DNA of 64,000 nt from Iphione sp. A-MEVVRFRX5 (lineage: Eukaryota), in assembly GCA_976226885.1 (NCBI GenBank), contig OZ320315.1:78058001-78122000 (forward strand), read 5' to 3'. Below are positions 37,546 to 39,398 of this stretch, one piece after another. The notes under the pieces are model-generated. The model saw only the letters and a program-made list of their open reading frames with translations. It had not been told where the DNA came from and made no database searches. The position numbers and the translations under genes were made by a program. Each line of letters begins with the position of its first letter. Position 1 is the first letter of the stretch.

Positions 37546-39398
37546 TCAACCCCGGGACGATGCTCTGGGATGAGGAAGGCTCGGGTGGTCTCTAGGTGGA
37601 ACCAGGCTGCTCTTGCACATGCCGCGAGGACCTTGTCACGAGCCCTGCCCGATCGCAGGACGTCAATCGTGGCCGAATTGTCGCACACGAGCCTGATGCT
37701 GCGGCCTTGATCCGCGCTGGTGATGAATGTGCGGATCGCCGCCATACAGTTTATAGCTTCCAGCTGGGATATATGATGTGCTTGTGCTATGTGCTCCGGC
37801 CAGTCGAATGCATAGCATGAATATCCGTCGTCTGCCCCAGCTCCGTAGAGTGAGGCGTCAGCCGCGATGGTCTTGCAGGGTTGGTCCGGGGGGAAGAAAG
37901 ACACCCCGTTGTGAGCGGCGGAGAAATCGCGGAGCCATCTGAGATCTGCTGCGAATGACGCGTCCACCTCGCACATCTGGTCTCCTTCGCGTAGCCTATC
38001 CAGGATCCTGGCCATAAAGAGTCTTGCAGCCGGCACGGCCTTAGCCATGTGGTTAACCCTGCCGACTATGGCTTGGACCTCCTTCTTCGATAGGTGTGGG
38101 CGGGTGAGGGCTAGGTCGAAGTGGTGGTGGTACTCGAGAAGCTTGGCGACCGGAATGGTGAGGGTCGCCGCGCGCGTGTCGATCGTGATTCCTAGCCAGG
38201 TGACCGTCGAGCTGGGTCCTTGCAGCTTTTTCCGCGCGACTGTCAAACCTAGGGATTCAAGGAACCTAATGGCGAGGTCCATCTGGGCGTGGGCCTCCTC
38301 GATGGAGCGGGCCGCGATGATCATATCATCCAGGTACATGAGGGCCGACAGTCCTTTCACTGCGAGGTATCTGGTGATATAGTCTGCCGCGGCCTGCATT
38401 GCTGCTGCGCTGAGTCGCGCCCCGAACGGGAGCGCCGTGTCGATGTAGTATTCGGCGTCAACCCGTATGCAGAGGAGGGGCCAGTCCCCCGGGCACACGG
38501 GGAAATGGCGGTAGGCGCGCTTCAAATCGATGACCATGAGGTAACACGGAGTAGGGGAGTTCTTGATAATGTTGACGATGTCGTTGACGGTCGGTAGGGT
38601 GTGGGGGCGCTCGGTGCCGTAGATGTAACCTTTCTGCACGTACGCGTTGACCGCGCGTCCCTCTGGGTAGGAGAGGTCGACGATCACCCGTCTGGTGCCA
38701 TCCGCCTTGGCGCGGGTCATGAGGGGTGCTACGATGCACCACTCCTGGAAGGGGGGTTTGTCGAAGGGGCCCATGAGGGCACCGAGGCGGAGCTCCTCTT
38801 CGATGTATGCGCGGAGGGCTTCGGGGTATGCCTTGGCAGAAGGGTGGTTGTCAACGTCGGTCCTACGCAGGGGGGGGCCTGCGTAGTGCAGGGGGAAGCC
38901 GAAACGGACCCCGTCGCGGACGAAGGGGTCATGGGGGTGGTTGGTGGCAGCGTCGTCCCACGCGCTGGGGATTAGGGCTGTCCGAAGGGGGAGCCTGGCC
39001 CCCAGCGCGTTGGGGTGTCCTAGGCGAACGACTCGTCTGTAGGTGTCTGCCGCAGCTTTGTCGCATGCACCGCTAATCCTTGGCCAGGTCGCGGCCCTAT
39101 GGGGGGCGAGGTGGGCTGTGAACCATGCGGCGTTCGAGCTTGACGGATTAGCGGGGCGTCCGGGTGTCGTTTGCTGGGTGTCGTCGAGGGGCGAAGCCGG
39201 GTCGTCGTCTCGGTGGTCCCCGTCACGGGGTGTCTGTGGCGGTTGGATTGCAGCGGTGTCATCGGGGATTAGTCGGTTTGGCTGGTTGACATGGTCTGGC
39301 GGCCGCGCTGGCTCGGGGGGTTGGCCGCCTCCTAATCCCTCGAGTGCCCGTTTTTTGCGGCGTCGTTCTTGTCGTATTTCTCGGTACGAATGTCCTTC
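37407..39398 (-). CDS. Reverse transcriptase / RNase H ORF (stop-to-stop frame; probably translated as a Gag-Pol fusion)
   Basis: I translated upstream of the track ORF (ATG 38774): the frame stays open to a TAA at 39399-39401 and has no Met in that stretch. It encodes the DIRS-type RT N-terminus (HPNALGARLPL...FGFPLHY...NHPSA...GPF). RT motifs: VIVDLSYP, IDLKRAYRH, LPFG, YLDD, WLGITID. RNase H D-E-D-D: DASLYG, QLEAIN, CDNSA, PDALSR. Confidence 0.96.
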   Translation of the reverse strand, partial: EGHSYREIRQERRRKKRALEGLGGGQPPEPARPPDHVNQPNRLIPDDTAAIQPPQTPRDGDHRDDDPASPLDDTQQTTPGRPANPSSSNAAWFTAHLAPHRAATWPRISGACDKAAADTYRRVVRLGHPNALGARLPLRTALIPSAWDDAATNHPHDPFVRDGVRFGFPLHYAGPPLRRTDVDNHPSAKAYPEALRAYIEEELRLGALMGPFDKPPFQEWCIVAPLMTRAKADGTRRVIVDLSYPEGRAVNAYVQKGYIYGTERPHTLPTVNDIVNIIKNSPTPCYLMVIDLKRAYRHFPVCPGDWPLLCIRVDAEYYIDTALPFGARLSAAAMQAAADYITRYLAVKGLSALMYLDDMIIAARSIEEAHAQMDLAIRFLESLGLTVARKKLQGPSSTVTWLGITIDTRAATLTIPVAKLLEYHHHFDLALTRPHLSKKEVQAIVGRVNHMAKAVPAARLFMARILDRLREGDQMCEVDASFAADLRWLRDFSAAHNGVSFFPPDQPCKTIAADASLYGAGADDGYSCYAFDWPEHIAQAHHISQLEAINCMAAIRTFITSADQGRSIRLVCDNSATIDVLRSGRARDKVLAACARAAWFHLETTRAFLIPEHRPGVEMILPDALSRASRSAPHRALADAIITKHSLTTTDVQPWAYDYAQYL
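39298..39356 (-). other. Putative -1 programmed ribosomal frameshift signal (slippery heptamer + pseudoknot)
   Basis: Minus strand: GC A_AAA_AAC in gag frame (39356-39350), spacer GGGCA, then stem 1 CUCG(A)GGG / CCCCGAG and stem 2 GGCGGCC / GGCCGCC in H-type order. The RT frame is -1 relative to gag. Confidence 0.8.

Follow-up and report, generated by a model that had tools for sequence, protein, structure and literature searches.

Several retroelements make spliced subgenomic RNAs (retroviral env, foamy-virus pol and copia/Ty1-type gag RNAs), the unspliced RNA serving as genome and Gag/Pol message and the spliced RNA giving a further protein. In -1 ribosomal frameshifting the 3' stimulatory structure usually lies 5-9 nt downstream of the slippery heptamer, which is A_AAA_AAC at the gag/pro junction of mouse mammary tumour virus (MMTV). 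Heptamers of this type are a common site of -1 frameshifting in retroviruses and in animal long terminal repeat (LTR) elements, and frameshifting at MMTV gag/pro uses a pseudoknot; the part of this source covered here contains neither 'DIRS' nor 'tyrosine recombinase' (Atkins et al. 2016, PMC5009743). Ngaro elements, which are tyrosine-recombinase (YR) retrotransposons of the order DIRS, are defined by the layout A1-[gag, RT/RH, YR]-B1 A2 B2, where RT/RH stands for reverse transcriptase (RT) plus RNase H (PMC8547959; likewise the covered part of PMC4157794), and according to Poulter and Butler 2015, as quoted in the portion of PMC13003380 covered here, their YR open reading frame (ORF) is probably reached by frameshift. 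Here we describe a 4.8-kb element of this kind on the minus strand of a 64,000-nt stretch of DNA (the window) from Iphione sp. A-MEVVRFRX5 (assembly GCA_976226885.1, contig OZ320315.1, positions 78,058,001 to 78,122,000). We consider it probable that from one Gag start codon this element makes Gag, a Gag-RT-RNase H fusion by -1 frameshifting, and a fusion of the N-terminal half of Gag to the recombinase by splicing. The argument is built on what the DNA itself holds, namely reading frames, a slippery heptamer, complementary stems, donor- and acceptor-like motifs, long-range complementarity and the conservation of all of these; the products and mechanism described below are deduced from them. 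Positions refer to the window, and the features are collected in Table 1.

The element is an intact Ngaro-like YR retrotransposon. Between its split repeats a gag-like ORF, an RT/RNase H frame and a YR frame follow one another on one strand, and among 65 intact loci of the family the A repeat was found in 60 and the full A1-[ORFs]-B1 A2 B2 order in 52. The RT frame matches RVT_1 (E=5e-19), a family found in 26 out of 26 members. RNase H has no Pfam match in the RT/RH frame and was called from conserved acidic residues (D416, E450, D476 and D526, alignment numbering) together with RT/RNase H hits in the PDB. The Phage_integrase match of the YR is under the curated cut-off (E=4e-4); in 51 sequences the catalytic residues R150, H266 and R269 (H-x-x-R) are invariant and Y300 is conserved in at least 90%. 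No methyltransferase, protease or DDE integrase was present among the Pfam families of 26 RT/RH and 26 Gag members, and a protease-like motif was seen in only 1 of 70. The frame stops right after the RNase H motifs, without the methyltransferase domain that follows RNase H in PAT-like DIRS elements. In all, the element has in common with Ngaro-like elements the repeat layout and the lack of methyltransferase, protease and DDE integrase; our RT tree took in the copies of this genome, and the Ngaro-like label rests on layout, domains and motifs. It differs in that the two Ngaro descriptions cited above give, in the parts covered, ORFs only, whereas here a slippery site lies at the gag/RT junction and splice-like signals are found for the YR.

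A preliminary description of the window, made from its letters, had proposed a retrovirus-style -1 frameshift cassette joining gag to RT. Its frame geometry was borne out: the RT frame opens at 39398 and has a 67-nt overlap with gag, to which it stands at -1, and it runs for about 208 codons before its first Met (codon 209, at 38774). These codons had been taken as a whole for the conserved RT N-terminus. This holds for codons ~98-208, in which 27 of the 111 columns are at least 90% conserved; the first ~97 codons are instead a variable linker, rich in Pro, Thr, Ala, Ser and Asp and 51-165 codons long across loci. The heptamer A_AAA_AAC (39356-39350) stands in gag phase, is the sole XXXYYYZ heptamer (Z not G) within 40800-35950 and is followed, as described, by a 5-nt spacer and by two complementary stems with the gag UAG inside loop 1. 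Stem 2 is the perfect 7-bp helix that had been claimed (39329-39323 with 39304-39298). Stem 1 exists too, with the correction that 39344-39337 pairs with 39319-39312 around an A39340.C39316 mismatch and has 7 bp, not 8. The locus resembles the gag-pol and gag-pro frameshift sites of retroviruses and LTR elements, with XXXYYYZ in the 0 frame within a -1 overlap and, behind a short spacer, a 3' structure whose two stems both outscore non-cognate partners in the window's clade (see below). A -1 shift would give 436 + 647 = 1083 residues, in agreement with the unprocessed Gag-RT-RNase H of about 1080 residues that had been predicted. In contrast to the retroviral case no protease family was found, so the fusion would stay uncut, and the integrating enzyme is outside a Pol polyprotein.

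The genome searched for other copies comprises 1.18 Gb in 89 contigs. A first DNA search gave 28 loci, in which the pattern was already visible. A search with the RT core then gave 143 matches, 43-69% identical besides the window's own, and 140 of the other 142 were taken; because the query was the RT core and not the junction, the choice of loci is independent of the junction. In the resulting 141 loci, window included, a long upstream ORF overlaps RT at -1 in 96 and at +1 in three; it ends near RT without an open overlap in 25 and far off in 12, and five loci have no long upstream ORF. A gag-phase heptamer was identified in 92 of the 96 intact -1 overlaps, always inside the overlap (A_AAA_AAC in 89, A_AAA_AAU in three), as compared with 2 of 976 other 90-nt gag windows. 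Of the four loci that lack it, one has the run out of phase by one base, in two a stop falls where the run begins, and one is without a site nearby. The heptamer is retained in 15 of the 25 interrupted loci and, when intact loci are collapsed at 80% RT identity, in 75 of 77 lineages. The distance from its start to the gag stop is 7 nt (44 loci), 10 nt (17), 13 nt (one), 22 nt (28) or 43 nt (two). The constraint on the site is at the nucleotide level: Lys435 is encoded by AAA in 69 of 70 lineages, compared with 612 of 1923 for the Lys codons in the rest of gag, the next codon is AAC or AAT in 70 of 70, and the preceding codon has A as its last base in 69 of 70. Among 108 loci that carry the heptamer, 99 have no stop in the -1 frame between it and the RT core; for the other two frames the numbers are 19 and 7. 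Immediately before the heptamer (39357) stands a C in 29 of 29 members of the window's clade, and codon 434 of gag reads NCA in 67 of 70 lineages, a hint of an extended CA_AAA_AAC signal. In 44 of the 92 loci, for example L067, L070 and L074, the gag stop stands immediately 3' of the heptamer (A_AAA_AAC_URR), and a terminating ribosome may therefore add to the pause. An RT protein search gave 63 relatives; a Lys-Lys trace was seen in 2 of 44 of their N-terminal extensions, against 33 of 231 body windows, and these ORFs, each beginning at a called Met, probably leave the site out.

A single clade (22 of 23 tips, support 0.98) holds the loci, the window's own included, whose heptamer starts 22 nt ahead of the gag stop. 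In 29 representatives of this clade the pairing of each 5' strand with the 3' region of its own locus was compared by score with its pairing to the 3' regions of all the others. Cognate pairing was stronger for stem 1 (-13.5 versus -10.8 for non-cognate partners) and for stem 2 (-12.2 versus -9.0), with 0 of 20000 permutations as extreme in either case, compared with 3975 of 20000 for a control partner window shifted 28 nt downstream. Stem 2 varies widely in sequence with its pairing kept; stem 1 in a fixed register is 68% paired, and 6 of its 10 pairs change on both sides. As ViennaRNA does not fold pseudoknots, a crude stem-energy score was used for the complete structure: it exceeded that of shuffled sequences in 23 of 23 intact clade members, and in 6 of 23 for a control region. 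Outside the clade the score is barely above control (29/39 versus 21/39 in the 7-nt class, 9/12 versus 8/12 in the 10-nt class), and minimum free energy z-scores of hairpins 3' of the heptamer are close to control. The comparison of sister copies that the preliminary description had suggested thus favours both stems in the window's clade, and the predicted pseudoknot is supported, by these pairing scores, for that clade only. It departs from the MMTV gag-pro pseudoknot, for which the covered part of PMC5009743 describes a single unpaired junction adenosine; the junction here is AAC, and its length and sequence vary across the clade.

Could RT be made without a frameshift, from an internal AUG, from a shorter transcript or by a splice into the linker, with the A-run kept for some other reason? 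A Met within the linker, ahead of the conserved RT start, is present in 52 of the 92 loci, and two whole-element GenBank models bridge Gag to RT. The position of the first RT-frame Met after the heptamer is however scattered, from 146 codons before to 130 codons after the conserved RT start; in 30 of the 92 loci it lies more than 20 codons inside conserved RT, and in the column of the window's own Met 3 of 26 sequences have one. The linker contains T-rich phase-1 acceptors in 9 of 92 loci, as opposed to 80 of 87 at the YR, and neither an AUG nor a splice acceptor for RT proved to be conserved across the family loci. A heptamer fixed in phase and in codon choice also speaks against a frameshift-free RT, a route that we consider improbable. 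A -1 frameshift giving a protease-less Gag-RT-RNase H of 1083 residues is, judging from the conserved site and frames, the likely route. Four loci (L055, L113, L120 and L147) have RT frames of 934-1079 codons, and in L055 RT and YR share one frame, either through mutation or as a fused form that occurs naturally.

The YR frame is likewise without a usable AUG, a point that the preliminary description had missed: its first Met is residue 155, and a Met by codon 7 was found in 18 of 95. A YAG lies exactly 60 nt upstream of a YR motif in 95 of 97 lineages, preceded by a T-rich tract (T 0.53 versus 0.16), and an in-frame stop occurs at most 15 codons upstream in 36 of the 95. Scanning 70 aligned gag genes for donor-like sites led to a single column used by 67 of them, the runner-up being used by 10. 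At this column Gly227 is GGT in all 67, whereas Gly codons elsewhere are GGT in 198 of 1190, and the following codon is AAG or AGG in the same 67; the three outliers have G/GTAAY (slash, predicted splice junction) two or three codons downstream. Donor and acceptor phases are compatible in 61 of 61 placeable lineages, with a span of 2485-2817 nt, and the signals read as those of a spliceosomal GT-AG intron, with a G/GTRAG-like donor, a T-rich tract with YAG and compatible phase. In the AlphaFold model of Gag (pLDDT 65, pTM 0.40) a predicted coiled coil (50-80) and a low-confidence basic/acidic stretch are followed by a folded core (230-405) with Cys/His motifs; the predicted donor immediately precedes this core and would leave the coiled coil in the first exon. 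Gag has no Pfam match and its model gave no Foldseek match at E<=0.001, the name 'gag' being taken from position and analogy.

The frameshift quoted for the Ngaro YR would here amount to successive -1 frameshifts, from gag to RT and then from RT to YR. The YR frame does overlap RT at -1 in the window and in 53 of the 88 loci with intact RT and YR, the quoted authors call such a frameshift probable, and four database proteins have RNase H and YR in one frame. In the other 35 of these loci, however, the YR lies at 0 (20 loci) or +1 (15 loci), many without an overlap, and an XXXYYYN site in RT phase is present in only 1 of the 53 RT/YR overlaps. Since the YR frame varies and a slippery site is so rare there, the quoted guess misfits the family; two frameshifts would also leave the fixed YAG, the T-rich tract and the phase-matched donor unexplained, and we regard them as improbable.

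Among the 150 best hits of a YR profile search, 12 have more than 150 residues ahead of the YR. Three of the 12 are whole-element or RT-YR models, four run RNase H directly into the YR and five have a non-RT N-terminus of 180-320 residues. These five are RefSeq models of amphioxus (four) and of a hemichordate (one): XP_078682739.1, XP_078682969.1, XP_035659582.1, XP_078660129.1 and XP_077986280.1. In the amphioxus models XP_078682739.1 and XP_078682969.1 Gag is joined to the YR directly before Gly-Lys, and longer models 97-99% identical to them continue into Gag past Gly-Lys, which identifies the N-terminus of both as Gag. The Gly-Lys cut lies 37 residues before a motif, and the matching motif here lies 35 residues after Gly227 (hhalign probability 60%). 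All five carry the label 'uncharacterized' or 'xerD homolog' and look like Gag-N/YR retrotransposon products; they share with the fusion predicted here a YR behind a non-RT N-terminus and have not been recognised as transposon products. A metagenome scan for related DNA gave one weak partial hit, and word-index protein searches with the YR and Gag alignment gave no match.

The ends of the predicted intron are complementary to each other. The window has one inverted repeat there, one arm of which follows the donor by ~120 nt and the other precedes the acceptor by ~90 nt. When the outermost 260 nt at the two ends of the intron are compared in 61 lineages, complementarity is higher inside one element (13.6) than between elements (9.7; 0 of 10000 permutations), and a duplex score of at least 14 is reached in 24 of the 61, compared with 0-1 of 61 for each of eight control window pairs. 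In most cases the acceptor follows the 3' arm by 70-120 nt, and the sequences of the two arms change together from lineage to lineage. We infer that the duplex may act in splicing; a role in packaging is the alternative. Taken together, the conserved YAG, the in-phase donor, the duplex of the intron ends and the amphioxus models make it likely that the YR is produced as a spliced Gag(N-half)-YR fusion.

A further possibility is that the frameshift is correct and that donor, acceptor and duplex reflect protein constraint, packaging or reverse transcription instead of a productive splice. The duplex arms lie within coding sequence and could serve RNA folding for packaging, and the predicted spliced junction was found in 0 of 40 extra YR loci (those outside the RT set, of 150 YR hits). 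Protein constraint, however, cannot account for the choice of GGT at 67 of 67 Gly, for which there are three synonymous codons, or for a YAG fixed upstream of a frame closed in many lineages (36 of 95), the phases match in 61 of 61, and an equivalent junction is used in the amphioxus models, so that we give this explanation little chance. L170 (G000:C1:108407430-108411730) has an internal deletion from late gag to the end of RNase H, with endpoints different from donor and acceptor; it retains an acceptor-like site and sits within a related element. Finally, transcriptional slippage adding one A at the A6 run, which is present and where one extra base puts RT in frame, is very improbable as the source of the RT frame: polymerase slippage usually requires longer runs, and this one numbers six A in 28 of the 29 clade members aligned, follows a fixed C, keeps strictly to gag phase and has covarying RNA structure 5 nt after it.

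In the model that we favour, most ribosomes would stop at the UAG in loop 1 and release Gag of 441 residues, and a minority would stall at the pseudoknot, slip by -1 and produce the 1083-residue fusion, which no element-encoded protease would cut. A spliced RNA would link gag codon 227 to the YR frame, giving 226 + 303 = 529 residues, and the splice would remove the Gag core, the frameshift site and RT from the message; the duplex of the intron ends would pull the splice sites together or tune their usage. The common N-terminal half of Gag, with its coiled coil, would bring both enzymes into the Gag particle. The predicted use of an unspliced transcript for Gag/Pol and a spliced one for a further protein is what known spliced retroelement RNAs do as well; the differences are that the further protein would here be a Gag-N/recombinase fusion borrowing the Gag AUG and coiled coil, and that a long-range duplex spans the intron.

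Several observations weigh against this model, besides the linker Met codons, the lack of spliced junctions and the near-control pseudoknot scores outside the clade that are given above. A nested ViennaRNA fold of the cassette is possible at -30.1 kcal/mol over 100 nt. Stem 2 is absent in 3 of the 29 clade representatives, and the best-scoring partner is the cognate one for only 3 of 29 (stem 1) and 8 of 29 (stem 2). Stem 1 is mainly conserved rather than covarying and overlaps coding sequence in two frames; sliding it by one column gives higher covariation (0.208 versus 0.171), because four members are shifted. The permutation tests ignore relatedness. The duplex threshold is reached in just the 24 of 61 lineages, the four relatives that run RNase H directly into the YR indicate that other routes exist, and, for the amphioxus proteins, homology to Gag is weak by hhalign and the RefSeq models are themselves predictions. 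A broader reading can be proposed, which we favour somewhat but hold less firmly than the model for this element: animal Ngaro elements would run a full retrovirus-like programme without a protease, with a duplex-clamped 2.6-kb intron and a splice conserved from this host to amphioxus, so that the real integrating enzyme would be a Gag fusion mis-annotated as a free YR ORF.

As to the remainder of the element, a 58-nt unique spacer (36165-36222) separates A2 from B2, and the B repeats each start with a (CA)n run (36480-36456) and contain AATAAA. A short AAT(T/C) word is repeated at the repeat junctions and may be a recombination site. A pyrimidine-rich (CCCT)n stretch (40880-40820) lies immediately upstream of A1, outside the element. 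The family is highly diverse yet mostly intact, its 141 loci falling into 110 lineages at 80% RT identity, and the copy in the window has identical B repeats yet no close sister, the next best RT being 69% identical.

Table 1. Features of the Ngaro-like element in the window (nt positions; a slash marks a predicted splice junction).
Feature	Position	Strand	Basis or remark
A1 split direct repeat, element 5' end	40667..40758	-	92 nt, 99% identical to A2
gag-like ORF1, 441 aa, UAG 39334-39332	39332..40657	-	ORF, conserved columns, AlphaFold model
Predicted 5' splice donor GAG/GTAAGA, gag codon 227, phase 1, last exon base 39979	39973..39981	-	GGT in 67/70 lineages
Predicted 2578-nt intron: gag core, frameshift cassette, all RT/RH	37401..39978	-	inferred, phases compatible 61/61
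Duplex 5' arm, 121-144 nt into predicted intron	39835..39858	-	inverted repeat and cognate versus non-cognate test
RT/RNase H frame, 663 aa between stops, at -1 to gag; holds linker, RT, RNase H-like acidic motifs	37407..39398	-	RVT_1, alignment, PDB hits
Slippery heptamer A_AAA_AAC, gag phase	39350..39356	-	kept in 92/96 intact loci
5-nt spacer	39345..39349	-	no gap in 29 members of the clade
Pseudoknot stem 1, 5' strand	39337..39344	-	cognate pairing test
Loop 1 with gag stop UAG 39334-39332	39330..39336	-	sequence
Pseudoknot stem 2, 5' strand	39323..39329	-	cognate pairing test
Pseudoknot stem 1, 3' strand, one A.C mismatch	39312..39319	-	cognate pairing test
Pseudoknot stem 2, 3' strand	39298..39304	-	cognate pairing test
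Duplex 3' arm, 88-111 nt before acceptor	37488..37511	-	same inverted repeat as 5' arm
Predicted 3' splice acceptor: T-rich tract over RT stop, then CAG/A	37401..37416	-	YAG fixed in 95/97 lineages
YR coding part, 303 codons including split first codon, first Met residue 155	36490..37400	-	Phage_integrase, conserved residues
B1 repeat	36310..36482	-	173 nt, 100% identical to B2
A2 repeat	36223..36314	-	partner of A1
B2 repeat, element 3' end	35992..36164	-	partner of B1

We found no paper reporting a slippery site, a pseudoknot or a Gag-YR splice for DIRS/Ngaro elements; a frameshift at gag/RT may already have been put forward by Goodwin and Poulter 2004 and by Poulter and Butler 2015. None of the three is given for the DIRS order in the covered parts of PMC3783388, PMC6681497, PMC3266345, PMC9210276, PMC7192593, PMC4157794, PMC2632668, PMC9341512 and PMC8556966. 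The predicted frameshift is a familiar mechanism in a class where it seems to be undocumented, and the matching splice route and duplex for the recombinase would, if the signals are read correctly, be the more surprising result. How the AUG-less RT and YR frames of YR retrotransposons are expressed has so far been a guess in the portion of the literature covered; for each of them this family provides precise sites that can be tested, and for the YR it runs counter to the quoted guess. Its ~75 diverged natural -1 cassettes, built on one heptamer with varied downstream structures and stop positions, provide a set for studies of frameshift stimulators. Biochemical or structural work on such recombinases would need the proteins that are likely the true ones, a Gag-RT-RNase H of 1083 residues and a Gag-N-YR of 529 residues.

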